A stretch of DNA of 52,666 bases from Patescibacteria group bacterium (GTDB lineage: Bacteria; Patescibacteriota; Minisyncoccia; Phycocordibacterales; VMEP01): positions 1 through 52,666 of the forward strand of contig JBBTSJ010000037.1 in the NCBI GenBank assembly GCA_038064715.1, given 5' to 3'. The stretch's first letter is position 1. Each line of letters opens with the position of its first letter. The translations under genes were made by a program, and so were the position numbers. The notes below the pieces were generated by a model that ran no database searches, had not been told where the DNA came from, and saw only the letters and a list, made by a program, of their open reading frames with translations. This document shows, piece after piece, positions 10,093 to 41,713 of the stretch.

Positions 10093-12165
10093 ATGAAATT
10101 AATTTATCTAACTTCCCAAAAATATCCCTCCGCAAAAGCTGATCCTTTTTTTGTGAAATCAATGGCTCTGGCTTTTGCCAAAATCTTGGACAAGAATTTG
10201 TTGTTCGTAGTCAGGGGCGATACTCCGAATGAGTTGAAGCATCTGAACGTTATGTCGGTGAAATTACCCAGACGTTTTAGAACGATACTTTATTTCTTTT
10301 GGGTACCTATATTTATTATATTTCGTAACTGGAGCGATTCGGAAACAGTTTTTTTCTCTTCCGACCCCTATTTGTTGTCAATACTGGTATTTTGGCGTAA
10401 AACTTTGGGATTCAAGTATCTTATCTGCTCCGATTGGCATCAGCTTTTTGGCGACTGGAAAGACAAATACGTGGCGGGCAGCAGCGACTATCTTATATCT
10501 ACGTCCAAGAGATTGAAAGGACTTTTGTCTTCGGTCTGCGCTGTTAACCCAGATAAGATAGTAGTTGCGTACGGTGGAGTAGACGCAAGTCTTTTTCTTG
10601 AAAAATCAAAAACAGTAAAAACGGAATATCAAAAGAATCTTAGATTACCTACGGACTCTTTTCTTGTCGGGTATGTAGGCGGCTTCAGAAGCCTGGGCAT
10701 AGGGAAAGGCTTGGACACGATGATTAAAGCACTTCAGTATCTTGATAATAAAATAACAATGGTATTTGTCGGAGGGTCCAAAAAAGATATTGAAGAATAT
10801 ATAACACTAGCCAAAGAGATTAATGTTGAAAATAGATGTATTTTTGTGGAAAAACAGAAGCCATTTGAAAAAGTGATTGAATATGAGATGGCCATGGATA
10901 TATTGGTTATTCCATATCCGGATGAACCGCACTTCAGAGATTACGGTTTCCCAATGAAAATATGGGAGTATATGGCTTCCGGCAAGCCGATAATATATTC
11001 AGATCTCGAGATTATGGGAGAGGTGTTGGAGGGCAAGGCGGTTTCATTCGAGCCGGATAATGCGTCAAGTTTAGCCGCCGTGATTGCGCGTATTATGAAA
11101 GATACCGATGCGGCGGAAATTATTGCCGCGCGAAACCCCAAGGAAGTAGAAAATTATACTTGGGAAGCAAGAGCCGCAAGAATTATTGATTTTGTGGAGA
11201 ATGGGTCTAAAAACACAAATAACAAAAGGCAAAAAATCACGAATCTACTCTATCGTCATATTTCGATATTTGAAGACCAAATGCGATACATGAAATCAGA
11301 AAAAAGCAAAATAAAAAGGGTCGTCCATAATACGAAGGTATTAGGTTTACCGTATGTTTTTTATAGTTTATCAAGATTCAGATTATTGGGTTTTTTAAAA
11401 AATATTAGAATAAAGTTTTTCTTCGGGAAAATGATGATTCTTCCCGCGAGTGACATGGGCGCCAGTGTTTTTTCCATGTATGGTATTATGCCGCACAAAA
11501 GCGAGAGAAGACTGGCGCTTTGGCTTATAAAAAATTTGAGAGACGAAGAAGTTTTCTATGACGTGGGAGCTCATCTCGGTTACTATACAGCGCTTTCGGA
11601 GAAAATACTTACAAGGGGGGAAGTACATGCTTTTGAAGCGAACAAAAAGCTATGCGGATATCTTAGGCAAAATTTTTCGGACTCAAATAATGTCTTCATC
11701 TCGTGTATGGCAGTTGCTGATTCCGACGGCGAAGTGGATTTTTACGACGCGACAGAAATTGATGACAGTTCTGCAAGCTCCAGGTTTAGGATAAAAAAGC
11801 AGTATACTAGAGTGTCTAAGGTTTCGGCGATTACTCTGGATGACTATGTTAATAAAGGAAACAAACCGCCGACAATTATTAAGTTCGACATAGAAGGCGG
11901 AGAAGGAGATGCTATAATCGGGTCTTTGGGTCTCATAAGGAAATACAAGCCGCGTATTATGATGGAGGTTTGGGGAGGAGAGGCCGGAAAGAAATATTCC
12001 CGTGTGGCAATTGATAAGTTAAAGGAACTTGGATACAAAGCATTTTTGCTTGACTCGGAAGGAGGTATTTCCGGGAAGCCTTTGGATAATCCGATAGCCG
12101 CTATAAGCGCTGGCGGTAACGATTCCAGAGATAATCTTTTATTTCGCCTAGCAAGGAGCATGTGA
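10093..12165 (+). CDS. Fusion protein: N-terminal GT4-like glycosyltransferase plus C-terminal FkbM-family methyltransferase
   Basis: GT part: GFPMKIWEYMASGKPIIYSD. FkbM part: FYDVGAHLGYYT and IIKFDIEGGEGDAIIG. ATG at 10093 (the track starts at TTG 10090). Confidence 0.85.
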   Translation: MKLIYLTSQKYPSAKADPFFVKSMALAFAKILDKNLLFVVRGDTPNELKHLNVMSVKLPRRFRTILYFFWVPIFIIFRNWSDSETVFFSSDPYLLSILVFWRKTLGFKYLICSDWHQLFGDWKDKYVAGSSDYLISTSKRLKGLLSSVCAVNPDKIVVAYGGVDASLFLEKSKTVKTEYQKNLRLPTDSFLVGYVGGFRSLGIGKGLDTMIKALQYLDNKITMVFVGGSKKDIEEYITLAKEINVENRCIFVEKQKPFEKVIEYEMAMDILVIPYPDEPHFRDYGFPMKIWEYMASGKPIIYSDLEIMGEVLEGKAVSFEPDNASSLAAVIARIMKDTDAAEIIAARNPKEVENYTWEARAARIIDFVENGSKNTNNKRQKITNLLYRHISIFEDQMRYMKSEKSKIKRVVHNTKVLGLPYVFYSLSRFRLLGFLKNIRIKFFFGKMMILPASDMGASVFSMYGIMPHKSERRLALWLIKNLRDEEVFYDVGAHLGYYTALSEKILTRGEVHAFEANKKLCGYLRQNFSDSNNVFISCMAVADSDGEVDFYDATEIDDSSASSRFRIKKQYTRVSKVSAITLDDYVNKGNKPPTIIKFDIEGGEGDAIIGSLGLIRKYKPRIMMEVWGGEAGKKYSRVAIDKLKELGYKAFLLDSEGGISGKPLDNPIAAISAGGNDSRDNLLFRLARSM

Positions 12166-12203
12166 ATGTGTAATCACATTCACAATGTCCGAGCGACGGC
12201 GAA
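12148..12203 (+). repeat. GCGAG/CCGAGCGA hairpin element, copy A
   Basis: ctaGCAAGGAGCA-[tgtgaatgtg TAAT cacattcaca]-atgtCCGAGCGAcggcgaa. The stop codon of the upstream gene (12163-12165) lies in the stem. Confidence 0.7.
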
Positions 12204-12222
12204 TCAAAGGTTAAATACCTTA

Positions 12223-12258
12223 GAGCTTCTCGCGAAAAGGCGCGAGCGAAGCAAGCTC
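12223..12258 (+). repeat. Nested hairpin containing CGAGCGAAGC
   Basis: gagctt ctcgcg aaaagg cgcgag cgaagc aagctc. Confidence 0.55.
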
Positions 12259-12266
12259 CGATAATA

Positions 12267-12286
12267 CCTCGGGGCTTGCCCCGAGG
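12267..12286 (+). repeat. Perfect 8-bp GC-rich hairpin
   Basis: cctcgggg cttg ccccgagg, with no T-run after it. Confidence 0.7.
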
Positions 12287-12302
12287 AACCTTTATTCACG
12301 AT

Positions 12303-12353
12303 GTAGGGCGAGAGAAATGGAAAAGGATACCCTCTTATTTCCAAGTCGGAAAG
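12303..12353 (+). repeat. GCGAG/CCGAG hairpin element, copy B (degenerate)
   Basis: GTAGgGCGAGA-[gaaat..ggaaaaggataccctctt..atttc]-caagtCGGAAAg. Confidence 0.5.
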
Positions 12354-12407
12354 TTGTGTGGGAGTTAATAGAGACTTCCTTTGTAGACCAATAATCTTAA
12401 TTAATAT

Positions 12408-14234
12408 ATGTGTGGCATATCAGGATTCAGTTGGAAAAATGACGAAAAAATAAGGGCGATGGTAGAGTCGCTTTCTTATCGTGGTCCCGACGCGGACGGA
12501 GTATTTATCGACGAAGGGATTTCTCTTGGGCACAATCGGCTCTCAATCATTGACTTGTCCGCAAGCGCCAACCAACCCATGTTTGATGATAAAAAAGAGC
12601 TGATAATAGTTTTTAACGGCGAGATTTACAATTTTAGAGAGCTGAAAAAAGAACTTTCCGACTACGATTTCAAAACCAAAAGCGACACGGAGGTTATTCT
12701 TGCCGGATACCAGAAATGGGGCAAGGATGTCGTAAAAAAATTGAATGGTATGTTCGCTTTTGCCATTTGGGACAGGAGAGACGGCTCTCTTTTTTGCGCT
12801 CGCGACCACGCGGGCATGAAACCGTTTTATTATTTTTGGAACGGAGAAAAATTTATTTTTGCTTCAGAAATACCGGCTATTCTCAAACACGATATTCCCC
12901 GGAAACTAAACTTGGAGGCTTTCAACCAATATTTTAGGGTGCTTTATGTTCCCGAACCACTGACCATGTTTGAAAATATTTATAAATTACCGGCATACCA
13001 CACCTTGACCCTTAAGAATGGAGAAATTCACATAGATACATATAGACAAGACAGAGCGGAGACAATCGATATTTCATACACCGATGCCGTTTCTGCCTTG
13101 CGTGAAAAAGTGATTGGGGCCGTAGAGCGGCATTTGGTGGCGGACGTTCCGGTGGGAGTCTATTTGTCCGGAGGTATTGATTCAAGCGCGGTTCTTTCCG
13201 CCATGTCCGGACTTCGCGGGAATATTAAAACATTTAGCGTCGGTTTTGATCTGGAAAATATTGGTGAAGCGGATAAGTTCAATCATGACTTTGAGCTTGC
13301 CAAAAAGACCGCGGAGTTTTTCGGAACAGAGCATCACTCCCTTATTGTTTCCACGAAAGACGCCCTAAGCGCTTTTGAAGGAGCCGTGGCGCATAATAGT
13401 GATCCGATATCGAATCCAACATCTATCGCCATGCTACTTTTGGCCAAGTACGCAAGGAAAGAGGTGACCGTGGCTTTAACGGGTAACGCGGGGGACGAGC
13501 TGTTTGGCGGATATGACAGATATAGGATGGCTTTGGCCGGGCACTACTATAAAAAACTTCCGGGATTTTTGCGGGCACTCGGCAATATGCATGGGAGAAT
13601 TTCAAAATTGGACTACAAAAACAAAACGAGTCTTTTTGCCCAATTCATGTTCGCAAAGGATAATAAGTTATCACGAGTGATTTCTACGAACGTTTTTGTT
13701 GATGATTCAAAAATCAGGGAATCTTTCGAAAGTAAGTATATTTCTAAATGCACAGGTGATCCGGCAGAATGTTTTATGACGGTTGATCAGAGAAGCTGGT
13801 TGCCGGATTATTTTTTCATGCTTTCGGACAAGATGTCTATGGCGAACGCTCTTGAGGAGAGAATGCCGCTTGCGGACAAGGAACTCTTTGGTTTTTCGGA
13901 AACTATTCCAAGGTCTTATAAATTAGATTTGTTTAGGACAAAGAAGGTTTTGAAAAAAGCATTCAGAGACGATTTGCCGGACTTTCTTTTTGATCAGCCT
14001 AAGCGCGGGTGGTTTTCGCCGGCGGCCAAATGGCTTCGCGACCCGGCTTTTTCTAAGTTAGGGAGAGAAGTATTATCGCCTGATTATTTTGAAAATACCA
14101 GAGACCTCTTCAATTGGCGGGAACTTAACGAGATGCTTGAAAAACATATCAATAAAGAAGAATACAATTTGGTTATTATCTGGGCAGCGATTACTTTTCA
14201 GGCTTGGGCAAGGAAATATAAGGTAGAAGTGTAG
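12408..14234 (+). CDS. Asparagine synthase (glutamine-hydrolysing)-family amidotransferase
   Basis: MCGISGF N-terminal nucleophile Cys and the SGGIDSS PP-loop, 608 aa. In glycan loci this family usually acts on sugar carboxylates (context inference). Confidence 0.9.
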   Translation: MCGISGFSWKNDEKIRAMVESLSYRGPDADGVFIDEGISLGHNRLSIIDLSASANQPMFDDKKELIIVFNGEIYNFRELKKELSDYDFKTKSDTEVILAGYQKWGKDVVKKLNGMFAFAIWDRRDGSLFCARDHAGMKPFYYFWNGEKFIFASEIPAILKHDIPRKLNLEAFNQYFRVLYVPEPLTMFENIYKLPAYHTLTLKNGEIHIDTYRQDRAETIDISYTDAVSALREKVIGAVERHLVADVPVGVYLSGGIDSSAVLSAMSGLRGNIKTFSVGFDLENIGEADKFNHDFELAKKTAEFFGTEHHSLIVSTKDALSAFEGAVAHNSDPISNPTSIAMLLLAKYARKEVTVALTGNAGDELFGGYDRYRMALAGHYYKKLPGFLRALGNMHGRISKLDYKNKTSLFAQFMFAKDNKLSRVISTNVFVDDSKIRESFESKYISKCTGDPAECFMTVDQRSWLPDYFFMLSDKMSMANALEERMPLADKELFGFSETIPRSYKLDLFRTKKVLKKAFRDDLPDFLFDQPKRGWFSPAAKWLRDPAFSKLGREVLSPDYFENTRDLFNWRELNEMLEKHINKEEYNLVIIWAAITFQAWARKYKVEV

Positions 14235-14245
14235 CAAGTACATAT

Positions 14246-15331
14246 ATGAGCAGCACCAAAAGGCGCATCAAAGTTCTCTATTTATATTCCGGATCGAGAA
14301 AGGATAAGTTTTTCGGTAAAATAGGGGTTGATTACCCGGACACCCAGTTTTATGGTTTCAATCATTTGGCTAAGTTTGGGGTCGAAGCCGAAACCAGAGA
14401 GTTTAACGACCTAGTTGGAAACCCCTTGGTAAATAAATTATTCGGATTCAGATTAAGGCATTTGTTCCTTTGTTTTTACGCGAGAAAATACGATATAGTT
14501 TTCGGCTCATCCATTCTTTACACAGCCATTCTCAAGAGATTTATTTGTCCAAAGACAAAATTTATATTGCTCAACATCAGTACCGCCAGAACCATTGAAT
14601 CTAACAGGAAAAAACACCTGAAGCTGAAATTTATTTTATGGTTGCTTGATGAAATGGACGGAGTTGTTTGCCTGTCTCGTAGCCAGATTATTTTTTTGAA
14701 AAATATCGCGCTACAGATGGCAGATAGACTTTTTTATGTTCCTCTTGGAGTTGACACCGTCTTTTATCAACCGAATTACACAGGGCGTAAGGATTATCTG
14801 CTTTCGGTCGGGCGCGATAATGGCAGGGATTATAAAACGGTGATTGACACAGCCCGTCTTATGCCCCGACAAAAATTTCAAATCGTTTGCAGTAAGAGGA
14901 ACCTAGCCGGCATAAAAGATATTCCAGGCAATGTGGAGATTATTTACGATCTCCCCATTCGCGAGCTTAAGCAGAAGTATTTAGAAGCGAAAGCGCTGCT
15001 ACTCATCACCCACGAAGACAAATGGTCCGAAGGCGCGGACTGTTCGGGGCAAACCGTACTCTTGGACGCGATGGCTTCTGGTTTGCCTATAATAACCAGC
15101 CGAAAAAAGTATTTAGAAGATTATGCAGTTGACAATAAAGAAGCGACATTCGTTGATTTTTATGATCCCGCTAAAGTTAAAATTGCCATTGAATCTTTAA
15201 ATAGTGTAGAATCGAGGAAAGAAATGACTGCGAGGGCGCGCAAGCGGGCGGAAAGAGAATTTTCGACTGAAAATATGGCCAAAAATTTAGCCACGGTATT
15301 TAACAGTTTATCAGGAAATGAAAATGGATAA
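14246..15331 (+). CDS. Glycosyltransferase, GT4-like (divergent)
   Basis: GQTVLLDAMASGLPIITSR C-terminal motif, GT-B size. Confidence 0.72.
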   Translation: MSSTKRRIKVLYLYSGSRKDKFFGKIGVDYPDTQFYGFNHLAKFGVEAETREFNDLVGNPLVNKLFGFRLRHLFLCFYARKYDIVFGSSILYTAILKRFICPKTKFILLNISTARTIESNRKKHLKLKFILWLLDEMDGVVCLSRSQIIFLKNIALQMADRLFYVPLGVDTVFYQPNYTGRKDYLLSVGRDNGRDYKTVIDTARLMPRQKFQIVCSKRNLAGIKDIPGNVEIIYDLPIRELKQKYLEAKALLLITHEDKWSEGADCSGQTVLLDAMASGLPIITSRKKYLEDYAVDNKEATFVDFYDPAKVKIAIESLNSVESRKEMTARARKRAEREFSTENMAKNLATVFNSLSGNENG

Positions 15332-15890
15332 TTTGCTTAAGATAGTCGGGTCCAATCTAAAAAACAAATCCGCTATTTTAGAGCTTGGTTGCGGTTCCGG
15401 TGAATTGATCAATGCTATTGCGGAGAGATTCAGCGGTTTGAATAAAATCGTTGCGGTAGATTTTTATAATCGCCCGGAAAAATTGGATAAAAAAATTGAG
15501 TTTATCAAGCAAGATATCGAAAATCTGGATATCCCCGGCAATTTTGACCTCGTAATATTAAACCAGGTATTGGAGCATATGAAAAATCCGCTCGGCCTGC
15601 TCGCCAATGTCAAAAGGAGTCTAACCCCTTACGCGCGAGTTCTTATCGTGGTTCCGAATCGTTACGGTTTTAACAACGAGGCTAGGGTATACTTGCCCGA
15701 GCATGGCAAGCATTATTTTTTGTGGGACAGGGAAAATTTGGAGTACAGCTTAAACAGAATAGGATTCACATGCAGATTTTATAATCTTTATACCGCCGCC
15801 AGCCACAACATCTTTTTAAAGTATTTGCCTGCTATACTCAGGTTGCAGAACCCCAACCTGACATGTATTGCGATGATAGACAAACCATGA
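15318..15890 (+). CDS. Class I SAM-dependent methyltransferase
   Basis: ILELGCGSGELI motif I. LVILNQVLEHM. Confidence 0.85.
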   Translation: MKMDNLLKIVGSNLKNKSAILELGCGSGELINAIAERFSGLNKIVAVDFYNRPEKLDKKIEFIKQDIENLDIPGNFDLVILNQVLEHMKNPLGLLANVKRSLTPYARVLIVVPNRYGFNNEARVYLPEHGKHYFLWDRENLEYSLNRIGFTCRFYNLYTAASHNIFLKYLPAILRLQNPNLTCIAMIDKP

Positions 15891-16840
15891 AGGAAATCTT
15901 AAAAACTACGCCGTGCGGCGGCCAGAAAGTAAAAGAGTTTGCAAAAAACCGATACTGGGGAAAAATACCCGAAGCTGAACTCGAAAAGGCTATTGACGTC
16001 ATTGACAGGGAAGGGTGGATTGTTTTCGCGGACAAATACAAAAGCAAACTGGACTTTACCACGGAAGAAAACCGGGCCGACTGGCGATTCTTTGTTCCCC
16101 TTGACCGTAATTCGGTCGTACTCGACGCGGGGGCAGGGTTGGGCAGAATCGCTATTCCCCTGGCTAGAGTCGTGGGAAGGGTTGTTGCTTGCGACACTTC
16201 CGTTGTCAGAATGAGATTTTTGAAAAAACTCGCGGAAGCAAAAGGGTTAAACAATATTGAAACTGTTGTCGCGGACATTTTTAGTACGCCGTTTGAAAAA
16301 GAAAGTTTTGACATGATTGTCATGAACGGACTTCTTGAATGGGTTGGAAAGACAGATTTGTACGACGATCCACGCAAGGCGCAAATCGCCTGTCTGAAAA
16401 TATGCAAGGGGCTTCTAAAAAATGGGGGATTCTTGTATGTTGGAATTGAGAACCGTTTCGCGCTGGCGTATTTACGCGGTCTTGATCACGGTGGCCTAAG
16501 ATTTACAAGCTATATGCCACGTTGGCTAGCCAACGCATACACCCTGTTTAGGAACGGTCACGGATACGACACTTATACATATACTGTTTCCGGTTACAGA
16601 AAATTACTTAATGAAGCTGGTTTCGACAGTCCGGATTTTTATTTAGTGTATCCCGGCTACAATCTGCCCCGGATAATTATGCCATATGACAATCTTAAGA
16701 TATTAAAATATACTCTCATATCCATGATGTCGGGCAACACCCTGGTCAGGAAAATCGCCAGGATAGCCGCGCGTTCTTCGTTTTTGGTATGGATTTACAG
16801 GAATTTCTTTTTCAGCTTCAACATTTTTGCACAAAAATGA
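15887..16840 (+). CDS. Class I SAM-dependent methyltransferase
   Basis: VLDAGAGLGRIAIPLA motif I. ATG 15887 forms an ATGA overlap with the upstream stop (the track starts at 15863). Confidence 0.8.
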   Translation: MKEILKTTPCGGQKVKEFAKNRYWGKIPEAELEKAIDVIDREGWIVFADKYKSKLDFTTEENRADWRFFVPLDRNSVVLDAGAGLGRIAIPLARVVGRVVACDTSVVRMRFLKKLAEAKGLNNIETVVADIFSTPFEKESFDMIVMNGLLEWVGKTDLYDDPRKAQIACLKICKGLLKNGGFLYVGIENRFALAYLRGLDHGGLRFTSYMPRWLANAYTLFRNGHGYDTYTYTVSGYRKLLNEAGFDSPDFYLVYPGYNLPRIIMPYDNLKILKYTLISMMSGNTLVRKIARIAARSSFLVWIYRNFFFSFNIFAQK

Positions 16841-17757: not shown

Positions 17758-17766
17758 GTTATTTTC

Positions 17767-18882: not shown

Positions 18883-18890
18883 GAGAATAT

Positions 18891-21395: not shown

Positions 21396-21410
21396 AACTT
21401 ATTAGCGGCA

Positions 21411-21460
21411 TAGAGCGAGAGAAATACAAAAGTAATCTTTTGTATTTCCGAGCCGAGGAG
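21411..21460 (+). repeat. GCGAG/CCGAG hairpin element, copy C
   Basis: taGAGCGAGA-[gaaatacaaaag TAAT cttttgtatttc]-CGAGCCGAGGAG. The 12-bp stem is perfect. Confidence 0.75.
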
Positions 21461-21512
21461 TTAATATAGGTCAATACCGCGTGATTTCTGCCGCGCGATT
21501 GAACGAACGGCC

Positions 21513-21547
21513 TGTGGTGAGCTAGGTCAAACCAAGCGAGCACCACA
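21513..21547 (+). repeat. Hairpin with AAGCGAG in the loop
   Basis: tgtggtg agctaggtcaaaccaagcgag caccaca. Confidence 0.45.
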
Positions 21548-22383: not shown

Positions 22384-22386
22384 AAC

Positions 22387-23258: not shown

Positions 23259-23266
23259 ATAATGGA

Positions 23267-28084: not shown

Positions 28085-28789
28085 ATGATGGTGGACAACA
28101 AATTATCTTCAATTTCGTTTTTTTGTCCGGCTTACAATGATGAAAAAAATCTGCCGGTTCTTATTCATTATGTCAGCCAGTTTTTGAAAGAAATTACCGA
28201 TATTTACGAAATAATAATTGTTCACGATGGCAGTCCTGATAAGACCGGGGAAGTGGCGGATAAGTTAGCCAGTGAATTTCCAAATGTGCGTGTCATACAT
28301 CATCCAAAAAACATGGGTTATGGGGCCACGCTTCGGGACGGGTTTCTTGCGGCCGAATATGATTATGTAATGTATACGGATGGGGACAACCAGTATGATG
28401 TGCGCGAATTTTTGCCGTATCTTAATCTTTTGGATACAGCCGATGTGTTGAGCGGTTATGTGACCGAAAAAGCGGTTTCTTTCCGCCGCAAAGTCCAATC
28501 GGAGGTTTATAATTGGCTTATCAGAATTTTGTTTTTTGTCTGGTGCCGGGATATTGATTGCGCCATGAAGATTTATAAGCGCAAGGTTCTGAACAGCATT
28601 TCAATTAAAAGTCCCAGCTGTTTTATTGACGCGGAAATGATAATCAAAGCCAAGAAAGCCGGCTTTCGTGTCGCCCAGTTTCCGGTTACGCATTTCCCGC
28701 GCACCGAAGGTCTGGCTTCCGGTTCAAAATTGAGCGTTATCACGGCCACTGTGAGAGATATGTTAAAATACAGGTTTGGGATATTATAA
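28085..28789 (+). CDS. GT2 glycosyltransferase (soluble, DPM1/GtrB-like catalytic domain)
   Basis: SFFCPAYNDEKNL, HDGSPDKT, YTDGDNQYD (DxD). Confidence 0.9.
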   Translation: MMVDNKLSSISFFCPAYNDEKNLPVLIHYVSQFLKEITDIYEIIIVHDGSPDKTGEVADKLASEFPNVRVIHHPKNMGYGATLRDGFLAAEYDYVMYTDGDNQYDVREFLPYLNLLDTADVLSGYVTEKAVSFRRKVQSEVYNWLIRILFFVWCRDIDCAMKIYKRKVLNSISIKSPSCFIDAEMIIKAKKAGFRVAQFPVTHFPRTEGLASGSKLSVITATVRDMLKYRFGIL

Positions 28790-29126
28790 TTGGCAGTGAG
28801 GGAGAAATGGAGAAGGCGGTTAGCCTTATACATTTCAACCGAGCGAACCAATTATATTGTATCCAGTTATATAATTGGCAGTGAGGGAGAAATGGAGAAG
28901 GCGGTTAGCCTTATACATTTCAACCGAGCGAACCAATTATATTGTATCCAGTTATATAATTGGCAGTGAGAGAGAAATGGAAAAAGCTAATGCTTTTTAC
29001 ATTTAGACCGAACGAACCGATTATAAGCGACGTAAAGCGAGAGTGATGAAAGAAAAGTAATCTTTTATTTCATTACCGAGCCGAGGAGCTTATATGTAAT
29101 CATATATTGTATTCGGTTATATAATT
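28785..29126 (+). repeat. Tandem array of four GCGAG/CCGAGCGA hairpin modules (D1, D2, E, F), 85-bp period
   Basis: Units start at tataattgg at 28785, 28870 and 28955, and the motif recurs as tataatt at 29120. D1 and D2 appear identical. E and F are diverged but keep stem pairing. Confidence 0.9.
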
Positions 29127-29130
29127 TCTT

Positions 29131-30807
29131 ATGATTCACAAAAGTGACAGAGTGGTAATAACAGGCTGCGGAGGCATGCTCGGAGAGGCCGTTTACGAGG
29201 TCTTTAAAGACGTATGCCAAGTCCGCGCTTCTGATATTGATTTAAATGTTCCTTGGCTGGAGCGGTTGGATGTGTCAGTCTCCAAAGACGTGGAAGTGTA
29301 TTTGGCTAAAGTAAAGCCAAATTACATTATTCATTTGGCCGCTTTGACCGATATGGAATATTGCGAACTGCATCCGGAAGAAGCCTATTCTACAAATACC
29401 GGCGGAGCGCAAAATGTCGCGGAGTATGCCCGAGACCACAACATACCATTGGTTTACATCTCCACAGCCGGCATTTTTGACGGTGGAAAAGATGAATATA
29501 CGGAAAGCGATACGCCGAACCCATTAAGCGTTTACAGCAAATCAAAATATGGCGGGGAATTGGTAGCGAGAACTTTGCCGAAATCAGTCGTCATCCGGGC
29601 CGGTTGGATGATGGGGGCGGGACCGAAAAAAGACAAAAAGTTTATAAATAAGATTATCAAGCAACTGCGGGTCGGGGCTAAGGAAATCGCCGTCGTTAAT
29701 GACAAATTCGGCACACCCTGTCACACCTACGACTTGGCCCAGTCCATAAAATATCTTCTTGACCACGACGCTTACGGTTTGTATCATGGAGCATGTGACG
29801 GCGGCGGAAGCCGGGCCGATATTGCCAGGTTTCTTCTTGAATGTTTCGGGCTTACGGAGCAAGTGAAAGTGAAAGAAGTCGATTCCAGCTTTTTCGCGGA
29901 AAGTTATTTTGCCAAACGCCCGCGCTCTGAAAAGCTTATTAACACGGAGCTTAAAAAAATAGCGCCCCACCTTACCAGGGACTGGAAGATATGCCTCAAG
30001 GAATATATCGAGAGATTTAACTGGAATCTGTGGGACCTTAACACTTCAGGTATGGAAAGAAGCTTTTATAAAAATTATTTCAAAGTTGAAAAAGAACACT
30101 GGCTCATGGTTGTGAGGAGGATGATTGTCAAAGACAACCTGAAGCTTTGTTTGGACAAAAACCCCGCAGAAACCAAAGTTCTGGATTTCGGCTGCGGTTC
30201 CGGAATCTTTGTTGACGAATTGGCGAAGCAAGGCTACCAGGCCTATGGTCTGGATATTTCCGAAGAAGCGGTTAAGTTTGGCATGCTTCAAGGCGTAAAA
30301 AATCTCGGAGCCATTGATGCCCATAAAATTAATTTTCCGGACAATACATTTGACGCGGTTTTTACCTTGGATGTGCTTGAGCATCTGGAGGATGAAAAAT
30401 GGGCGCTAGACGAGATTAGGAGGGTATTAAAGCCGGGCGGGGTGGCTATCATTATGGTCCCCGCCTACATGTTTCTTTGGGGGGTACAGGACGAGGTAGC
30501 CCATCATTACCGCCGCTATACAAAGAGTTCTTTGTTGAAAAAAATTAAAGAGGCTACATCTCTTAAGACACTAAAGGCGTCATATTTCAATACTTTTCTC
30601 TTTCCGCCAATCGCGTTTTTCAGGATTGTAAGCAGAATATTCGGTATAAAGGGCAGAGAGTCGGATTTTGACATCAACAGTCCCCTTATGAATAGATTTT
30701 TCTTTTCCATATTTAATACCGAAAGAAAAATTCTTAAGCATGTCAGATTTCCTTTTGGCGTTTCGATTTTGCTCGTCCTTAAGAAAGAGACAGATTCATC
30801 ATCATGA
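29131..30807 (+). CDS. Fusion protein: RmlD-like sugar-nucleotide reductase (SDR) plus class I SAM methyltransferase
   Basis: N-terminal part: VVITGCGGMLGEAV and YSKSKYGGE (YxxxK). C-terminal part: VLDFGCGSGIFVDELA and FTLDVLEHL. Confidence 0.85.
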   Translation: MIHKSDRVVITGCGGMLGEAVYEVFKDVCQVRASDIDLNVPWLERLDVSVSKDVEVYLAKVKPNYIIHLAALTDMEYCELHPEEAYSTNTGGAQNVAEYARDHNIPLVYISTAGIFDGGKDEYTESDTPNPLSVYSKSKYGGELVARTLPKSVVIRAGWMMGAGPKKDKKFINKIIKQLRVGAKEIAVVNDKFGTPCHTYDLAQSIKYLLDHDAYGLYHGACDGGGSRADIARFLLECFGLTEQVKVKEVDSSFFAESYFAKRPRSEKLINTELKKIAPHLTRDWKICLKEYIERFNWNLWDLNTSGMERSFYKNYFKVEKEHWLMVVRRMIVKDNLKLCLDKNPAETKVLDFGCGSGIFVDELAKQGYQAYGLDISEEAVKFGMLQGVKNLGAIDAHKINFPDNTFDAVFTLDVLEHLEDEKWALDEIRRVLKPGGVAIIMVPAYMFLWGVQDEVAHHYRRYTKSSLLKKIKEATSLKTLKASYFNTFLFPPIAFFRIVSRIFGIKGRESDFDINSPLMNRFFFSIFNTERKILKHVRFPFGVSILLVLKKETDSSS

Positions 30808-32057: not shown

Positions 32058-32059
32058 AT

Positions 32060-32159
32060 AAAACGTTAAAATTTCGAGCGAAAATCGCGAAACGCGAGGA
32101 AGCGATACGAGTATCGTTGACAAGCGATGAGCGATTTGCAGCCAAAATTTTAACGTTTT
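32060..32159. repeat. Perfect 15-bp inverted repeat enclosing a 70-nt GCGA-rich core
   Basis: aaaacgttaaaattt (32060-32074) pairs with aaattttaacgtttt (32145-32159). The core contains GCGA six times, including CGAGCGAA and GCGAGGAAGCGA. Confidence 0.8.
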
Positions 32160-32319
32160 AGCAGGCAAACAAGCATTCCGGTCTTATTTTGCGCTTAGAT
32201 GCTGAACAGGCTCTAAGAAAAAACAATAACTAACTGACAAATAGCTATGTTTTTGGAAAAAACGCAAGCTGGACATACATACTGAAATATAATAATGTGT
32301 AGTGAAATTTACTATATAA

Positions 32320-35308: not shown

Positions 35309-35394
35309 TAGAAAAGAGCAAAATTTGCAAAAATTATATAGATATCAGCGTATCCTGGTGAATTATCTTCGAGAACATTCTTAATATTTTTTTC

Positions 35395-35422
35395 TTGACC
35401 GTATGCTTATCTGGTATATTAT
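35395..35422 (+). promoter_or_regulatory. Sigma-70-like promoter candidate
   Basis: TTGACC-N16-TATTAT, 30 nt upstream of ATG 35452, in a 143-bp spacer. Confidence 0.35.
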
Positions 35423-35451
35423 CTTAATTTCCCCCAAAAAGTTGACCATAG

Positions 35452-36096
35452 ATGATTGATACAAATTCAATTAAGGCTGTTATATTTGACTACGATGGAG
35501 TTATAATTGACTCAGACCCATTTTCCAGATATGCATTTGGGGAAGTCCTTAAGCAAAAGGGTATTTTACCTACTGACGAAATATATAAAAAATATTTTGC
35601 CGGGCGGAAACTTGAGGACAGCATCACTCTTTTTCTGAAGCCGATGAACAGACTTTCAGAAATAAAAGAGTTTATCTCACTGAAAAAATCTTTTGATTCC
35701 GAATATGGAAAACATGTCGTAGCCTATGACGACGCGGTAAAATTAGTCAGCAGGTTAAAAGGCAAATATCGCCTGGCAATTGCCACAGGTTCTCGCCGAG
35801 TGCTTATTGATACTGCATTTAAGAAACTTGGATTGGGTCATGTATTTGAAGTCGTCATCTGCGCGGAAGATTATAAAAAAGGCAAACCTGACCCGGAGAT
35901 TTACTTAAAAAGTTTAGAAAAGTTAAATATCTCACCAAACGAAGCCGTGGTTATAGAGGATGCCCCGTGGGGGATAGAAGCCGCGCAGAGAGCAGGTATA
36001 AGATGTATTGCTGTCACGCATACCCATTCCGAGCTTGACCTAAAACAGGCCGACTTAATTGTCAAAAACCTTTTGGATATAAATTTGGAAGTATAG
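35452..36096 (+). CDS. HAD-superfamily hydrolase, subfamily IA (beta-phosphoglucomutase/phosphatase-like)
   Basis: VIFDYDGVIIDSD (DxDG) and GKPDPEIY..VIEDAPWGIEAA. Confidence 0.88.
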   Translation: MIDTNSIKAVIFDYDGVIIDSDPFSRYAFGEVLKQKGILPTDEIYKKYFAGRKLEDSITLFLKPMNRLSEIKEFISLKKSFDSEYGKHVVAYDDAVKLVSRLKGKYRLAIATGSRRVLIDTAFKKLGLGHVFEVVICAEDYKKGKPDPEIYLKSLEKLNISPNEAVVIEDAPWGIEAAQRAGIRCIAVTHTHSELDLKQADLIVKNLLDINLEV

Positions 36097-36139
36097 GAAC
36101 TCTTTCTTTACAGGTTTCCCGTTGTATACTAATCCGTAT

Positions 36140-36727
36140 ATGCAAGGTAGCATTAAAGAATCAATTGCGGTTAAAGAGAGTCTGCTCAAAGACCAAATTG
36201 CTCTTAAAGCGCTTGGAAGTATTGCGGATGCGTTAAAGGATGTTTACCGGAGAGGGGGGAAGATTCTTATCGCGGGGAATGGAGGAAGCGCTGCCGACGC
36301 GCAGCACTTTGCCGCGGAGATTACGTGCCAGTATAAAGCGGTTCGGAAGGGATATCCGGCAATCGCTCTCCATACTGATACTTCCGCGCTTACCGCGTGG
36401 GGAAACGATAAAAGTTTTGAAACATTCTTTGGGCGGCAGGTTGAAGCGCTTGGTCAAAAAGGCGACGCGCTTATTGTTATTTCAACAAGCGGGAATTCCG
36501 CGGATTTGCTCTATGCCGTGGAGCAGGCGAAGAAGGGGGGACTGCAAGTATTCGCGCTTCTTGGCCGGGACGGCGGCAAACTCAAGGCGGAAGGCCTGTG
36601 CGATGAGGTTATTATTGTGCCTTCTCAAAATACTCCCCGCATTCAGGAATGCCACATTATGCTCATTCATATTATATGCGAAGCGCTTGATACTTTTCTT
36701 GTAGCACTCGACCAAAAAAATAATTAG
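36140..36727 (+). CDS. gmhA: D-sedoheptulose-7-phosphate isomerase (SIS domain)
   Basis: ILIAGNGGSAADAQHFAAE and ISTSGNS signatures, ~195 aa. ATG at 36140 (the track starts at TTG 36122). Confidence 0.9.
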   Translation: MQGSIKESIAVKESLLKDQIALKALGSIADALKDVYRRGGKILIAGNGGSAADAQHFAAEITCQYKAVRKGYPAIALHTDTSALTAWGNDKSFETFFGRQVEALGQKGDALIVISTSGNSADLLYAVEQAKKGGLQVFALLGRDGGKLKAEGLCDEVIIVPSQNTPRIQECHIMLIHIICEALDTFLVALDQKNN

Positions 36728-36757
36728 ATTAAGCTTGAAAGTTTTTGTAAATGAAAT

Positions 36758-36790
36758 AAAAAAAGCGCCCTCTCCGTAAGGAGTGGGCGC
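36758..36790 (-). terminator. Rho-independent terminator for the minus-strand gene (possibly bidirectional)
   Basis: gcgccctctcc gtaa ggagtgggcgc hairpin. The A7 run on the + side gives a T7 run after the hairpin on the - strand. Confidence 0.7.
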
Positions 36791-36823
36791 GTGTTACTGA
36801 TGCGATGAAGCTTGTTGCCGGGT

Positions 36824-37858
36824 TTAGCCGATGAGACCGGCCACGATTTTTTCCACCGCATTTTCGAACTTCGACGCGGAGAAATTGGCTTCTTGAGCGC
36901 GGAACATTCTCCGCAACACCTCGCTATCCGGCTTGAGGAGCAATCTCATTGCGAGCTCCAGGTCGACAGGCTCTTTGACGAGTTGCGAAGCTCCGAACCT
37001 TGTCGGTGGCCAGAAATCAAGGCCGCTCAGTTCCTCCCAAAACAGCTGGTCAATCGGATGAACCAAATCAATCACTGGCTTGCGCAAGCATGCCGCCATG
37101 ATTCCGACTGAGGAACCACCGGCCGCCACGACAAGGTCGCTGCCAGTGAGCATTTCCTGCGACGACAGCCCAATCTCACGTCCGGCAAACTGGACAGGAC
37201 AGCTGGCCCATTTCAGTATGCCGTCGTAGACATCCTTGCCGTGGTCGGCGCCGGGATGCATGGTGAGTACCATGTGAATTTTCTCGAGCTCACGCCCGGT
37301 CATCACCAGGTCGGTGTACAGAGCCACATTGCGTTCGAGCTCCTTGTTGCCGACGGCCAGAACCATTTTTTCATCCGGCTTGATGCCCAGCTTGCTACGG
37401 ACTTCCTTGCGACTTACCGTCGCTTTGAAGAACTCTGTCCAGTAGGGATTGCCGGAAGGGATAATCCTGGTGGTTGCATTCACGTACCGTCTGGCCGTTT
37501 CAACCTCCTGTTCATCGGTTACGAACAGTATGTCGGTTTTGGTCATGAGGTCCGTGAACCACGGGCGATGGTACATGCCGTAGATGTCCGAGAACACGGC
37601 GACAGGAACTCCCAATCGCTTGGCTTCCGTGAACGCATGTCTTTCCTCGAGTACTCTGTTCGTGGCCGAGGAGACGCTCATGAGCAGACGGTCTGCGCCG
37701 ATGAGAGCCACGCTAACCTTGTCGAGATTGCCGTCGGGAAGGGGTTTGCCCATTCCGAGGAACATCTCTACATTGTGCCCCAAGCTTTTGAGTTTCTCGC
37801 CGATAATCCGGAGAGAATTCCCCGGGCCGACGTCTTGCGTTACAATAACGATTTTCAC
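36824..37858 (-). CDS. GT-B/Rossmann-like protein of unknown specificity, GC-rich relative to its neighbours
   Basis: GTG 37858 lies 5 nt after GGAGG and gives MKIVIVTQD (the track starts at TTG 37888). The C-terminal DLVVAAGGSSVGIMAACLRKPVIDL resembles a nucleotide-sugar-binding GT-B motif. Confidence 0.55.
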   Translation of the reverse strand: MKIVIVTQDVGPGNSLRIIGEKLKSLGHNVEMFLGMGKPLPDGNLDKVSVALIGADRLLMSVSSATNRVLEERHAFTEAKRLGVPVAVFSDIYGMYHRPWFTDLMTKTDILFVTDEQEVETARRYVNATTRIIPSGNPYWTEFFKATVSRKEVRSKLGIKPDEKMVLAVGNKELERNVALYTDLVMTGRELEKIHMVLTMHPGADHGKDVYDGILKWASCPVQFAGREIGLSSQEMLTGSDLVVAAGGSSVGIMAACLRKPVIDLVHPIDQLFWEELSGLDFWPPTRFGASQLVKEPVDLELAMRLLLKPDSEVLRRMFRAQEANFSASKFENAVEKIVAGLIG

Positions 37859-37995
37859 TTTGACCTCCGTTGAGTGGTGAAAAATCAAAAAATCAAAAAA
37901 AGAAGAACAATCTAAACATCGTCCACTATTGTATACTATATCTTGTGTTTTGTCAATGGCTCGTAATGGCTTAAAAACTTAGTGTTTTTGGACAT

Positions 37996-39801
37996 ATGCA
38001 TTTTGAGTGGCGGATATATATGATAATATGTGCCAATATGAAAAATGAGTCGGTTTTAGTAATTTTTGGCGGAGATTTTCCGCCCAGTGGGATATTATCC
38101 AAGCGTCAACATGATGTCATAATTGCTGACGAGAAACTGCGGCAACATATTGAAGATACTGGTTTCAAATTCATTCCGATCGGACCGCTTATTGAGGCCG
38201 GTAGCATTCATGATGCAAGCGCTTTTCTCGAAGAACTTTCTTACTTGAAACTTGCTGATGGCTCACGTTTGGCAAAATCTTTTGAATATAAAGGCTATGA
38301 GTTGTGGTGGACGCATTATGACAGTCTTTTTATATACTTTTGCCTGCCTTATACGCAATATAAAAAATTGCTTGAGTACCTGAAAAGTTTTCGCGCGGTA
38401 TCTTTTTATAAGCCTCCTTTTATAAGCCTCTTCTCTTGTTACCTTAAAGCGCACGGATGCCAGGTCTCTCTCCTTCGCGGGTTGGGGGTAAATACGTCCT
38501 TGTCTCTTACATTTGGTATTTTTCTTCAAATTGCGCTCACCATCCTTTGCTTGCCGGTTTTAATGTTAAGGAACCGCCGCCTTATGATATTTATCGGCGA
38601 TAAATTTGAAAAATCTCAAGACTATGATTTTAGAACGAAATTCATTTACGAAGAGCTTCGGCGGAAAAACATTCCTTTTGTTGAGTTTATAAGAAGTTTA
38701 GGGTCTTGGAAAATAGTGTTGGAACATTTCTTTATAAGAAAACGGCCAGTTGTTTACTCCGAAGCGGTAGTTTTTATCGGACGAATTGCGAGCGTTATTT
38801 CAGGTGGAAGGCGCCGCGCTTTGCAGGAATTTGACTCTCGCACGTTTGCTTTGGGAAAAGACCCAGAGACGAAGTTTAAGCTTTTGGTTGCCACTCAATA
38901 TCTTCTTGGCGTGTATGACGACATATGGGCTATAAGAATTATGAAATGGATCTTACGCGCGGTTGGAATCAAGGTGTCTTTTATAGCAGCAACGTCAGAG
39001 CGTAATTTCCATACTGTTTTGGGCTGCAAATTAAATGGAATGCCGACAGTTGGCATTATGCATGGTGTCCAAATTCGGGACTACAATGTCTATGATTTCC
39101 TTCCCGGTTTTGATGGCGTTAAAAGGTTAACAGTCGATAAGTTCGGCCTCTGGAGCGAGTGGTGGAAAGAATATTATATCAAAAACAGTAAAGCATATGG
39201 CCGGGAGCAATTGTATGTGTCAGGCCCCATGAGACCGCTCTTGAAAAACAGTAACACCGAACCTGTCCCGGCGGAAACACCGGGTGGTATAACGCGCGTC
39301 CTGTTTGTTTCTGAAGAAATGGCTATACCAAGCGAAATATTACCTTACCTTAATGAATTATTGCGACAGAAGGATATGGAATTAACCATTAAGTTCCGTC
39401 CCACCAGAGATGGATTTGAAGAGTGGCTTTTGCAGAATGAACCGGCGATTCTGAAGAGCCAGAATTTAAAGATAGCTAAGGGGAATATGCAGGAGGCAAT
39501 TAGAAACACCGACGTGGCAGTGGGATGCCAAAGTACGGGTGTCATAGAGTCATTGCTTCAGCTTAAGACTCCCATTTATTTCCGGACACGGAAGTGGGGC
39601 GACTACTACAGTCTTAAAGAATATGACAAGAATCATTCCTTTTTTGCGGAAAGCCCGAAAGAGCTTATAGAAAAAATTAAAAACGCCCGGTCGGTGCCGA
39701 TAGAAGCCCTCGAAGATTTGCAAGAGAGATATTTCGGCGACCCGTACGAGAATGGAAGCAAATGGGTTGTTGAACAATTAGGAAAATGCATAACAGATTG
39801 A
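37996..39801 (+). CDS. Putative polysaccharide biosynthesis GT-B protein (Capsule_synth/KpsS-like or TagF-like C-terminal half)
   Basis: RVLFVSEE.., KFRPTRD, DVAVGCQSTGVIESLLQLKTPIYF resemble the ..NST.G.EAL..GkPV pattern. There is one central TM segment. ATG 38038 is an alternative start. Confidence 0.5.
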   Translation: MHFEWRIYMIICANMKNESVLVIFGGDFPPSGILSKRQHDVIIADEKLRQHIEDTGFKFIPIGPLIEAGSIHDASAFLEELSYLKLADGSRLAKSFEYKGYELWWTHYDSLFIYFCLPYTQYKKLLEYLKSFRAVSFYKPPFISLFSCYLKAHGCQVSLLRGLGVNTSLSLTFGIFLQIALTILCLPVLMLRNRRLMIFIGDKFEKSQDYDFRTKFIYEELRRKNIPFVEFIRSLGSWKIVLEHFFIRKRPVVYSEAVVFIGRIASVISGGRRRALQEFDSRTFALGKDPETKFKLLVATQYLLGVYDDIWAIRIMKWILRAVGIKVSFIAATSERNFHTVLGCKLNGMPTVGIMHGVQIRDYNVYDFLPGFDGVKRLTVDKFGLWSEWWKEYYIKNSKAYGREQLYVSGPMRPLLKNSNTEPVPAETPGGITRVLFVSEEMAIPSEILPYLNELLRQKDMELTIKFRPTRDGFEEWLLQNEPAILKSQNLKIAKGNMQEAIRNTDVAVGCQSTGVIESLLQLKTPIYFRTRKWGDYYSLKEYDKNHSFFAESPKELIEKIKNARSVPIEALEDLQERYFGDPYENGSKWVVEQLGKCITD

Positions 39802-41598
39802 TTAGTGTGTCTTGGTATCAGCTAATTTTGTAATTAAATAATTTTCTAAAACCAGATAATCCATTTTGGTGGCCAAAAATGTCCTTACAGCATCCTCTGG
39901 AGTTTCCACAATAGGCTCGCCGCCGAGATTAAAGGAAGTATTTAAAATTAAAGGCACTTGCGTCAGGCCGTAAAAATTTTTAACCAAATCATAATAACGG
40001 CCATTGACAGCCGGGGTGAGAGTTTGAATTCGACAAGTTCCATCAACATGAGTAACTGACGGGATTTTACCTTGCTTATCCTTTTTTACGTTAGCGGCTA
40101 GCATCATGAAGGGGCTCTTACCGTTGAATTCAAAAAAGTCGCCAACTTTTTCCTCCAATACCGAAGCGGCAAACGGCCGCCACGGCTCGCGATGCTTAAC
40201 TTTTAGATTCAACACATCTCTCATGTCGCTTCGTCTGGTATCGCACAAAATCGAACGATGTCCAAGAGCGCGCGGCCCGTATTCCGCGCCGCCGTAAAAC
40301 CAACCGATAATTTTACCCCCGGCTATTAAACCGGCAACTTCGGCGGCAATGTTTGAGGACTTGAAATAAACCAGTTGACCCGCTTTTTCCTTCAATGCCG
40401 TCAGAATTTCAGCTTCGGAATAGGAACGTCCCAATGAAGCGCTTTTCATTTCGTAAAATCGCGGCTGACCGGCAATAATGTGGCATCCATATAGCGCGAG
40501 ACCAAGAGGGATTCCCGCGTCTGATGAGGCGGGCTGGACGAAGATATTTTTAAAGCCAACCTCATCGAGGAAGTTCATGTTGGCGTCAATGTTGAGTCCG
40601 CAACCGCCCGCTACACAAAGATTTTGAGATCCGGTGATGTTTTTTAATTGATTTCCGAACAATATCGCCACCCTTTCGAATATTTTTTGAGCCGCATAGG
40701 CAAGAGAGGAGTAATAGACATCAGGCAGTTTTTCGTCTCCACGTTTCGGTTTTTCTAATTTGATTTCAGGAAAAATATCTACTTCAAAAGTCCCGTCCCT
40801 AGTAAGATGTTTTTGCATAAACCGGACCACAGGCCGCAAAAAAAGGGCTAATCGATGCTTGATCCGAGGCCTCATATTTTTGAGGTCGCGTATTCTGCGT
40901 GAAATTGGAGCCGCAGGATAGCTAATATTGCTATTACATAACACATGACTGTTGTATTCTCGGCACCACTCGTCATACGGATGCGCCCGCAAGACCGAAT
41001 CGTTTCCGTAGGAAGCCAGACCCATTAACTTCCCTTCATTGAGAAGGCCTAAATTACAATAGTCCGTGATGAGTGAGTACAGCTTACCGATGCCGAAGGT
41101 GTACGGGAAAAATCTATCCTCCCGCAGGTGAAGATTTTTTCTGATTTCATAGAGACGGTTGTTTCGTCCGGAATACAGCGTATCGGTTTCGGTTGCATAC
41201 ACGCCAAGATGAGTGGCGAATTTTTCCCCGGTACCGTCATAGACGAGCGTGGCAGCTTCACCAAATGGGGAACAAAAAAATGCTGAAGCGGCATGGGCAT
41301 CGTGATGGTTAATGACATGCGTCTTTGCTCGAGAAAAAACGCCATTGGTTTCCCTGTTAAAAATTTCCAATGGCCGCGTTTTGGAGCGCAGGTTAGTCTG
41401 ATCCATCAGCACCATATCGATATCGGCGGGTTTTAGGCCGAAATGATTCAAGCAGTAGTCGATGGATAGACGGGGAAACATATTCGACGAATGCTTAATC
41501 CGATTGAGCCGCTCTTCCGCAAGGGCCACCACGCGTTGGCCAGAGATTAGAGCTGCTCCGGTATTGTGACCCGTAACTTTAACGCCAAGAATATTCAT
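39802..41598 (-). CDS. NodU/CmcH-family carbamoyltransferase
   Basis: MNILGVKVTGHNTGAALISGQRVVALAEERLNRIKH, HHDAHAASAFF, and the YrdC/Kae1-like C-terminal part. ATG at 41598 (the track starts at TTG 41613). Confidence 0.9.
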   Translation of the reverse strand: MNILGVKVTGHNTGAALISGQRVVALAEERLNRIKHSSNMFPRLSIDYCLNHFGLKPADIDMVLMDQTNLRSKTRPLEIFNRETNGVFSRAKTHVINHHDAHAASAFFCSPFGEAATLVYDGTGEKFATHLGVYATETDTLYSGRNNRLYEIRKNLHLREDRFFPYTFGIGKLYSLITDYCNLGLLNEGKLMGLASYGNDSVLRAHPYDEWCREYNSHVLCNSNISYPAAPISRRIRDLKNMRPRIKHRLALFLRPVVRFMQKHLTRDGTFEVDIFPEIKLEKPKRGDEKLPDVYYSSLAYAAQKIFERVAILFGNQLKNITGSQNLCVAGGCGLNIDANMNFLDEVGFKNIFVQPASSDAGIPLGLALYGCHIIAGQPRFYEMKSASLGRSYSEAEILTALKEKAGQLVYFKSSNIAAEVAGLIAGGKIIGWFYGGAEYGPRALGHRSILCDTRRSDMRDVLNLKVKHREPWRPFAASVLEEKVGDFFEFNGKSPFMMLAANVKKDKQGKIPSVTHVDGTCRIQTLTPAVNGRYYDLVKNFYGLTQVPLILNTSFNLGGEPIVETPEDAVRTFLATKMDYLVLENYLITKLADTKTH

Positions 41599-41650
41599 AC
41601 CTTGAAGATACAACGAAAAATTATATTTGGAAACCCCATCCTATCCGTTA

Positions 41651-41713
41651 TTTCGTCTAGCGAGGATCGCGTGTGAATGTAATCATTCACACGGCGTCCG
41701 AGTGAAGACGAAA
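41651..41713 (+). repeat. GCGAG/CCGAG hairpin element, copy G
   Basis: tttcgtct-AGCGAGGATCGC-[gtgtgaatg TAAT cattcacac]-GGCGTCCGAGTGA-agacgaaa. The inner stem is almost identical to copy A. Confidence 0.75.

Follow-up and report, generated by a model that had tools for sequence, protein, structure and literature searches.

REP (repetitive extragenic palindromic) and REPIN elements of the REP/REPIN-RAYT systems are short intergenic hairpins that occur in many copies per genome and are structure-dependent, strand-specific and mostly co-transcribed. They are presumed to be processed, in the form of folded single strands, by an enzyme whose gene lies elsewhere. A family of hairpin units with these features is present in contig JBBTSJ010000037.1 of a Patescibacteria metagenome-assembled genome (MAG). 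The entire 52,666-bp contig is the window analysed here. The hairpins are probably copies of a non-autonomous mobile DNA repeat family widespread in Patescibacteria. They look like a mobile hairpin family similar to REPs or MITEs (miniature transposable elements with inverted repeats), and resemble selfish mobile DNA, not an operon control signal. The copies are extragenic and dispersed, with eight in the 52.7-kb window and at least 11 strict matches on the 510-kb contig Ga0082335_1000026, which is ~90% identical to the window over the shared genes. Whereas REPs consist of GTAG or CGTC next to a palindrome of 20-40 bp, the units are ~85-95 bp long, and inverted doublets are absent. The units also differ from REPs in their conserved internal loop with G·A mismatches and in a tail of 14-17 nucleotides (nt) at the 3' end. 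The Y1 transposase loci found, a remnant in the window and an intact homologue elsewhere, are not flanked by the units but by palindromes of the type CCAAGGAC(N3)CCTTGG.

The ERIC/IRU, Correia (NEMIS), RUP and BOX repeats and MITEs are imperfect palindromes of ~100 bp that display insertion polymorphism between strains. Similar to the units, they are located in transcribed intergenic regions in both orientations, contain internal insertions, and are associated with duplication of an AT-rich target. The units differ from them in the host phylum, in having an asymmetric hairpin with a tail instead of two equivalent inverted repeats, in a duplicated core that is the element's own 5' end, and in a hypervariable inner stem. 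Integron attC sites share with the units a conserved outer helix, an unpaired or mismatched centre, single bulged bases, a variable terminal stem-loop, and head-to-tail arrays. However, the outer helices of the units (for example, TATAATTGG/CCAATTATA and TATTTCGTC/GACGAAATA) lack the RYYYAAC/GTTRRRY cores, the copies are mostly solitary, and there is no integrase among the open reading frames (ORFs) of the window.

The insertion site of the units has a short core in common with the element, as is the case for attC, CTX-phage attP, and the ends of IS200/IS605 elements. In contrast to these systems, the units contain no dif-like 28-mer and form one hairpin instead of distinct left and right ends, and no recombinase or adjacent intI was found. 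The units also differ from IS200/IS605-derived PATEs, which have separate subterminal hairpins at the left and right ends and insert 3' of a fixed tetra- or pentanucleotide with no duplication, in that they form one composite hairpin and have TATAATT on both sides of the insert. By analogy, the units would act most like the REP/RAYT, IS200/IS605 and attC systems and the ERIC/Correia-type repeats. What sets the family apart is its tandem-G·A loop, its conserved tail, and its insertion at a core that element and target have in common.

The stem-loop arrays of TIGR-Tas systems also occur in Patescibacteria. In them, stem-loop units are repeated in tandem, and short conserved motifs lie next to variable palindromic stems (PMC12045711, section 9; bioRxiv 10.64898/2026.09.09.750476), and some of the units described here are likewise organized into arrays. 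Nevertheless, it is very improbable that the units serve a Nop-domain Tas protein as guide RNAs of the stem-loop TIGR kind (tigRNAs). A TIGR array requires an adjacent tas gene and two 9-nt spacers that are unpaired and lie between box C and box D (PMC12045711; bioRxiv 10.64898/2026.09.09.750476). The units have neither such dual spacers nor a neighbouring tas gene; their variable segments are paired, and the unpaired ones are conserved. Most copies are dispersed and solitary, next to housekeeping genes, and no Nop or Tas domain is present in the window ORFs tested. A TIGR-Tas array was therefore rejected on anatomical grounds, by comparison with the published definition.

The first-pass annotation of the window described eight hairpin copies, A, B, C, D1, D2, E, F and G, all on the plus strand, and this observation is confirmed. 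The copies lie at or near the positions given there, but run further in the 3' direction into the conserved tail ATTGTAYYYRGTTATAT, which had been missed. The tail is carried by D1, D2, E and G and is degenerate in A and B. The conserved blocks that flank the hairpin are in general as described, but the 5' block of copy A reads GCAAGGA, with a G replaced by A. Five copies (A, C, E, F and G) have a TAAT loop. An outer helix occurs not only in D, E, F and G, as described, but also in copy A (TTTCGCC/GGCGAA). Copy B is present, but it is degenerate, folds with a z-score of only -1.1, and has no covariance-model match. The proposed analogy of a (G)TAG motif to the head of REP elements fails because the (C/U)AG residues lie inside the internal loop.

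A descriptor consisting of G[CT][GA]AG, a single hairpin, and CCGA[GA][CT] has nine matches in the window, six of which are true copies (A, C, D1, D2, F and G, all on the plus strand) and three are weak chance matches. The mean in 30 block-shuffled windows is 0.57 matches. The folding z-scores of copies A, C, D, E, F and G range from -3.8 to -7.1. The covariance model R1, built from 15 G-type copies on other contigs and copy G, scores 103 bits for G, 75.7 for A, 44.3 for D1, and 14.6 for C on the plus strand, whereas the reverse strand at those sites scores at most 25 bits. The covariance-model search proposed in the first-pass annotation also finds many further copies outside the window.

The unit is composed of a 5' arm X (TAT followed by 4-7 nt), the purine loop NNAG-YGAG, a variable hairpin, the segment CGAR-YGAA, the arm X', and the tail ATTGTACCCAGTTA. 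X' is complementary to X, and the two arms form the outer helix. The variable hairpin is often closed by a TAAT loop, and the tail is single-stranded in the predicted fold. In the fold common to the window copies, a small asymmetric loop separates the outer helix from a 2-bp helix, which is followed by a 2x2 loop, a G-C pair, and the variable hairpin. The internal loop is formed by one to three 4-nt modules in which 5'-YGAG-3' faces 5'-CGAR-3'; some subfamilies have two or three modules in series, for example GUGAGUGAG facing CGAGCGAAC. Read antiparallel, each module would form the pairs Y-R, G·A, A·G and G-C, which correspond to tandem sheared-type G·A pairs bracketed by Watson-Crick pairs. 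The reading is supported by the bracketing pairs, which covary across the family (at column pair 27-132: CG 43, UA 26, UG 12; column pair 26-134: GC 69, AU 10, GU 9). A loop pair that is U-A in copy E is U·G or C-G in other copies. The family comprises at least four subfamilies that can be told apart by X/X', by how many loop modules they have, and by the inner stem; the tail is common to all of them. Two known motifs were rejected on by-eye comparison: a hammerhead, in which the essential positions (CUGANGA/GAAA) of the core differ, and a K-turn, the register of which would break the covarying 2-bp helix.

Gain and loss of units is seen at the junction between the glycosyltransferase GT2 gene and the RmlD-methyltransferase gene, which can be compared among orthologous loci (the L-numbers denote fetched comparison loci). 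In L123, L266 and L267 there is no element, and the junction reads ...(C/T)TATAATT(5-6 nt)(G/A)TG, so that the stop and start codons almost touch. L265 has a 20-nt spacer without an element, L121 has a single 84-bp insert, and the window has four units in 341 nt. Copy D1 (28785-28869) is an intact 85-bp D-type unit on the plus strand, with a fold z-score of -7.1 and a pattern match, composed of X TATAATTGG, CAGTGAGGGAG, the hairpin, CCGAGCGAA, X' CCAATTATA, and the tail TTGTATCCAGTTA. Its X holds the TAA stop codon of the GT2 gene. Copy D2 (28870-28954, plus strand) is a tandem duplicate 100% identical to D1. The 5' part of copy E, from X through X' (28955-29025, plus strand, fold z = -6.4), is interrupted by copy F (29021-29106, plus strand). 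Copy F belongs to the C/F subfamily and has a shortened tail TGTAATCATATA, a descriptor energy of -11.8 kcal/mol, and a fold z-score of -5.3. It is nested in E at TTATA, and its excision restores the D-type sequence CCGATTATA joined to TTGTATTCGG. The tail of E and a second TATAATT core follow (29107-29126, plus strand; partial R1 match at 29056-29122); this core abuts the start of the RmlD-methyltransferase gene at 29131.

In the filled sites, the left TATAATT is followed by GGCAG, and the right TATAATT comes after ...CCAGTTA and precedes the original spacer and start codon. TATAATT forms the first seven nucleotides of the element in every D-type copy. Since the host TATAATT on both sides of the insert is equal to the element start, the insertion either occurs in an att-like, site-specific manner at a core that the element also carries, or duplicates a strongly preferred target. 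The junction that is empty in four relatives, together with the ~1/4 of copies that are antisense to neighbouring genes, bears out the earlier preference for a DNA-level, REP/MITE-like element over an operon-internal mRNA signal. In the more distant relatives L268-L270, the same junction (1062-1200) is a 139-nt spacer that contains CGAGGAG and CGAGAG and has no model match; it may be an unrelated or very decayed insert.

Three features would also fit a conventional MITE that a DDE transposase moves in double-stranded form, with the stems serving as terminal inverted repeats and TATAATT as a target-site duplication of fixed length: the resolved junction has a 7-bp duplication, the ends of the D-type (TATAATTGG ... 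CCAGTTATA) are inverted repeats at 8/9 positions, and the combination of a ~85-95 bp length with an AT-rich target is typical of MITEs. We give this explanation only a small chance of being right. The duplicated core is constant in all D-type copies and equal to the element start, and thus not a random target. The terminal inverted repeats are restricted to the D-type; the G- and K-type units are without them because their tail is conserved while X varies. Furthermore, the hypervariable inner stems are unlike a transposase-binding terminal inverted repeat, the conserved loop sequences are strand-specific and not mutually complementary, and no DDE transposase is seen among the neighbouring ORFs. 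A long target-site duplication of the variable X was likewise rejected: the 3' flank agrees with the copy's own X at 3.1 of 6 positions and with the X of other copies at 2.8 of 6. Own-X identity is thus barely above that of others, and what recurs in general is the constant TAT(T/A) core alone. After some copies come 10-16 nt that belong to a next, truncated unit.

Units also pile up and nest at other sites. Head-to-tail arrays of 2-4 units are present in L206, L215, L216 and L251, and extra hairpins are located inside the loops of L202 and L203. In L187 (951-1170), within a 16S-23S spacer, a complete tRNA-Ile gene lies between the two arms of a unit, on the opposite strand from it, and a partial copy of the 5' half of this tRNA, joined at the anticodon loop, follows the tail. 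Truncated and decayed copies exist, for example B, L121 and L129. In the AAGTGAGYGAG subfamily, 12 of the 23 copies, including L157, L159, L161, L163, L184, L192, L227, L241 and L261, are placed exactly at the centre of perfect 17-35-bp flanking palindromes (...CTAT before the unit and ATAG... after it), the sequence of which differs for each copy. Such sites possibly originate from insertion into hairpin tips or from palindrome extension by template switching.

The conserved flanks that form an internal loop around a covarying stem, as proposed in the first-pass annotation, passed testing. In a model-guided alignment of 96 distinct sequences, 87% of the stem cells are paired, compared with 60.5% in shuffles, and 682 stem cells have changes on both sides, compared with 229; the alignment was fitted to the model structure and these figures lean towards structure, but the margin is still large. 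Sliding the 3' partners by 1-3 columns reduces the pairing to 34-49%. Purine-rich loops with sheared G·A pairs are typical protein-binding RNA motifs. Together with the very stable folds (z-scores to -7) and the covarying stems, they are compatible with a unit that is primarily a functional structured RNA, either a cis-acting mRNA element (for example, a stabiliser, a processing site or a platform for protein binding) or a small RNA, in which the tandem-G·A loop and the tail bind a Patescibacteria protein and spread is secondary. We consider such an RNA unlikely, although it has an appreciable chance of being right.

RNA structure under long-term selection normally tolerates wobble pairs far better than A·C mismatches. 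In the stems of the units there is no wobble excess, with 86 G·T and T·G combinations versus 96 A·C and C·A combinations. Equal numbers are expected from neutral transitions in a once-perfect DNA palindrome, which suggests that resident copies drift. New copies seem to be born well paired, with the pairing important for propagation, and resident copies seem to then decay neutrally. The decayed copies (B, L121 and L129), the identical tandem duplicates, the nested insertions, and the orthologous junction, at which four relatives lack a unit and others are variably occupied, also speak against a primary RNA function. Rfam 15 has no match in the window at the gathering threshold and none with E <= 10 in the region 28700-29200, and in nine related loci Rfam finds only tRNA and 16S rRNA.

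The units are found beside many unrelated genes in either orientation. Their neighbours are ordinary housekeeping genes, such as those for EF-G, RpoD, DnaG, ribonucleotide reductase, PheS, GlyRS, and a DsbA-like protein. Among the matches listed, 84 of 133 copies have no more than 10 nt in common with called ORFs, and many touch gene ends. Among the same matches, the upstream gene has the orientation of the unit in 87 cases and the opposite one in 30; the two neighbours are both co-oriented with the unit in 56 cases, and both are opposite to it in 13. This bias favours an RNA-level role, whereas the ~1/4 of copies in antisense orientation, including G and L139, argue against it. The discordant cases are too few to separate transcription from replication as the source of the bias.

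Units at the rpoD gene end occur in four diverged genomes (L154, L211, L220 and L244), where X together with TAG supplies the three final codons of rpoD (Tyr-Phe-Asp) and its stop, and the same 12 nt recur after the tail. In L154 and L211 the unit is positioned between the rpoD stop codon and the true intrinsic terminator. These copies at rpoD terminators, with units at the same gene end in L220 and L244, provide a further argument for a functional RNA. In L185, the last ~75 nt of rpoD are found together with the unit at a different locus, which is a further sign of mobility or turnover. Besides rpoD, the family is located at the ends of core genes such as fusA, in rRNA spacers, and at polysaccharide genes. 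No terminator-like sites, defined by a G+C-rich stem followed by a T-run, were found at the units, and promoter consensus scans near the copies give matches not above chance; the latter result also speaks against an RNA role. A promoter or terminator role of the units was rejected because the consensus scans do not exceed chance; the true terminator at rpoD lies after the unit.

The family is previously undescribed and widespread in Patescibacteria. A 5'-side-anchored pattern scan of species-representative genomes identified true copies in three other MAGs of the candidate phyla radiation (CPR) among ~15 chance matches. These copies are located between ybeY and ftsA, at the orthologous GT2/RmlD junction, and between an NYN-domain gene and pnp, where the unit is antisense to both genes. 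A scan of metagenome contigs, in which the 3' core and the tail had to be 6-12 nt apart, yielded at least 119 loci with at least 139 matches and at least 111 distinct sequences. The samples are mostly from groundwater and sediment and include assemblies from the Hainich aquifer, in which the closest relatives of the window genes are also found. R1 has 113 matches with E < 1e-3 in 738 kb of fetched loci and 29 matches with E < 0.01 in a further 226 kb (~0.96 Mb in all). The claim that the family is dispersed and unnamed thus holds, with more than 100 further copies in other Patescibacteria contigs and no Rfam match. A first loose scan of viral contigs gave chance matches only, blastn of phage and plasmid collections gave no match, and no description of the tail sequence or of such CPR repeats was found in the searchable literature.

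The remaining window copies are located in a polysaccharide-synthesis locus at 0.7-45.4 kb, which encodes glycosyltransferases, methyltransferases, epimerases, a flippase, and a Wzy-like protein. Downstream of it are gap, rpiB, rpe, and a split transketolase gene. The G+C content of the window is ~0.43. Copy G (41648-41731, plus strand) is an intact G-type unit with a fold z-score of -7.0. It contains X TTATTTCGTCT, AGCGAGGA, a hairpin with a TAAT loop, CCGAGTGA, X' AGACGAAACA, and the tail TTGTACCTAGTTATAT. As noted in the initial annotation, it is antisense to both of its flanking minus-strand genes (assigned by Pfam). Copy A (12139-12216, plus strand) is G-type with a decayed tail GGTTAAAT (R1 E = 3e-18; fold z = -5.8), and its 5' part contributes the final codons and the stop codon (TGA) of ORF 10090-12165 (glycosyltransferase/FkbM). 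Copy B (12303-12371, plus strand) has the core GGGCGAGAG and the degenerate tail TTGTGTGGGAGTTAATAG and is assigned to a decayed D/E-type only by sequence resemblance. Copy C (21399-21475, plus strand) belongs to the C/F subfamily, with the 5' arm TTATTAGCGG, the core AGCGAGAG, a TAAT loop, and the 3' segment CCGAGCCGAGGAG. It is without the canonical tail (descriptor energy -12.7 kcal/mol; R1 E = 0.4; fold z = -3.8).

The window contains additional hairpins. Between copies A and B (12217-12296) there are two more small ones, GAGCTTCTCGCG...CGCGAGCGAAGCAAGCTC, which contains GCGAGCGAAGC, and the G+C-rich CCTCGGGGCTTGCCCCGAGG. The segment 32058-32165 (108 nt) folds into a rod-like hairpin, the outer stem of which is perfect over 15 bp, interspersed with several 2x2 loops rich in G and A. 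Both CGAGCGAA and GCGAGGA occur in this hairpin, which has a fold z-score of -7.0 and no R1 match and may be a rearranged relative of the family.

A link of the hairpins to a RAYT/Y1 transposase, which the first-pass annotation proposed to look for, did not hold up. The spacer 45428-45707 contains a 60-amino-acid (aa) ORF (45497-45679) that corresponds to the N-terminus of full-length homologues of ~228 aa carrying the Y1_Tnp domain. It is a remnant of a Y1/HUH (IS200-like, RAYT-like) transposase. A 17-nt palindrome, CCAAGGACGACCCTTGG, flanks it in three identical copies (45438-45454 on the minus strand, and 45461-45477 and 45655-45671 on the plus strand). The remnant and its homologue in L271 show that the lineage carries Y1 transposases. 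However, the Y1 transposase seen here belongs to a separate, classical REP-like system, and since the relic is flanked by a different palindrome, it gives no support to this enzyme as the mover of the G·A-loop hairpins.

Several results weigh against the interpretation of the units as mobile DNA. No transposase or recombinase recurs near the copies; clustering of 438 neighbouring ORFs gave housekeeping families only. Searches by tblastn with approximate IS200 TnpA and E. coli RAYT queries found nothing in ~1 Mb, although this is a weak test. The intact Y1 homologue (L271, 3001-3687) is flanked by palindromes of its own type, and R1 finds no unit in L271. The sense bias of ~3-4 to 1 and the presence of a unit in the rpoD 3' untranslated region of four diverged genomes also fit an RNA-level role. 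The element boundaries are defined by one well-resolved set of empty and filled sites; two other empty-site candidates, found by BLAST of the flanks, are too diverged for exact junctions to be read, and the window and L183 are not collinear at rpiB. Finally, the metagenome copies were picked for an intact 3' core and tail, and the conservation of these parts therefore partly reflects how the copies were found.

As a non-autonomous mobile repeat, the unit would be mobilised by a trans-acting enzyme that recognises the folded top strand. The G·A-mismatched loop and the tail would be the determinants of recognition and cleavage, and the stems would need only to pair. Integration would occur, in an att-like manner, at short AT-rich cores that are similar to the 5' end of the element itself. 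Such a mechanism can be likened to those of IS200/IS605 ends, REPs, CTX-phage attP, and integron attC, which act as folded single strands. After insertion, most copies would be co-transcribed in 3' untranslated regions or between cistrons and would then decay. It is distinctly unlikely, but conceivable, that the element picks its insertion site by complementarity or identity of its own X/X' with host sequence, in a structure-guided, partly programmable, CPR-specific system. X' and the (YGAG)n/(CGAR)n G·A-zipper loop would then do more than package the element, and the enzyme would recognise a new G·A-module motif in folded single-stranded nucleic acid. The candidate targets would then be the last rpoD codons, TATAAT-containing gene ends, and the tips of host hairpins.

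The genomes of Patescibacteria are very small and streamlined and are usually regarded as poor in mobile DNA, whereas the family described here is abundant, structured, and array-forming. It is a source of genome plasticity and of breaks in MAG assemblies. Insertion of the units can rewrite the 3' ends of genes and break translational coupling, as at the GT2-to-RmlD junction, where the distance from stop to start codon increases from 5-6 nt to 341 nt. The covariance model enables annotators to mask the repeats and to avoid misreading them as regulatory RNAs or guide arrays. Moreover, the family points to a putative enzyme that would recognise an unusual tandem-G·A motif.

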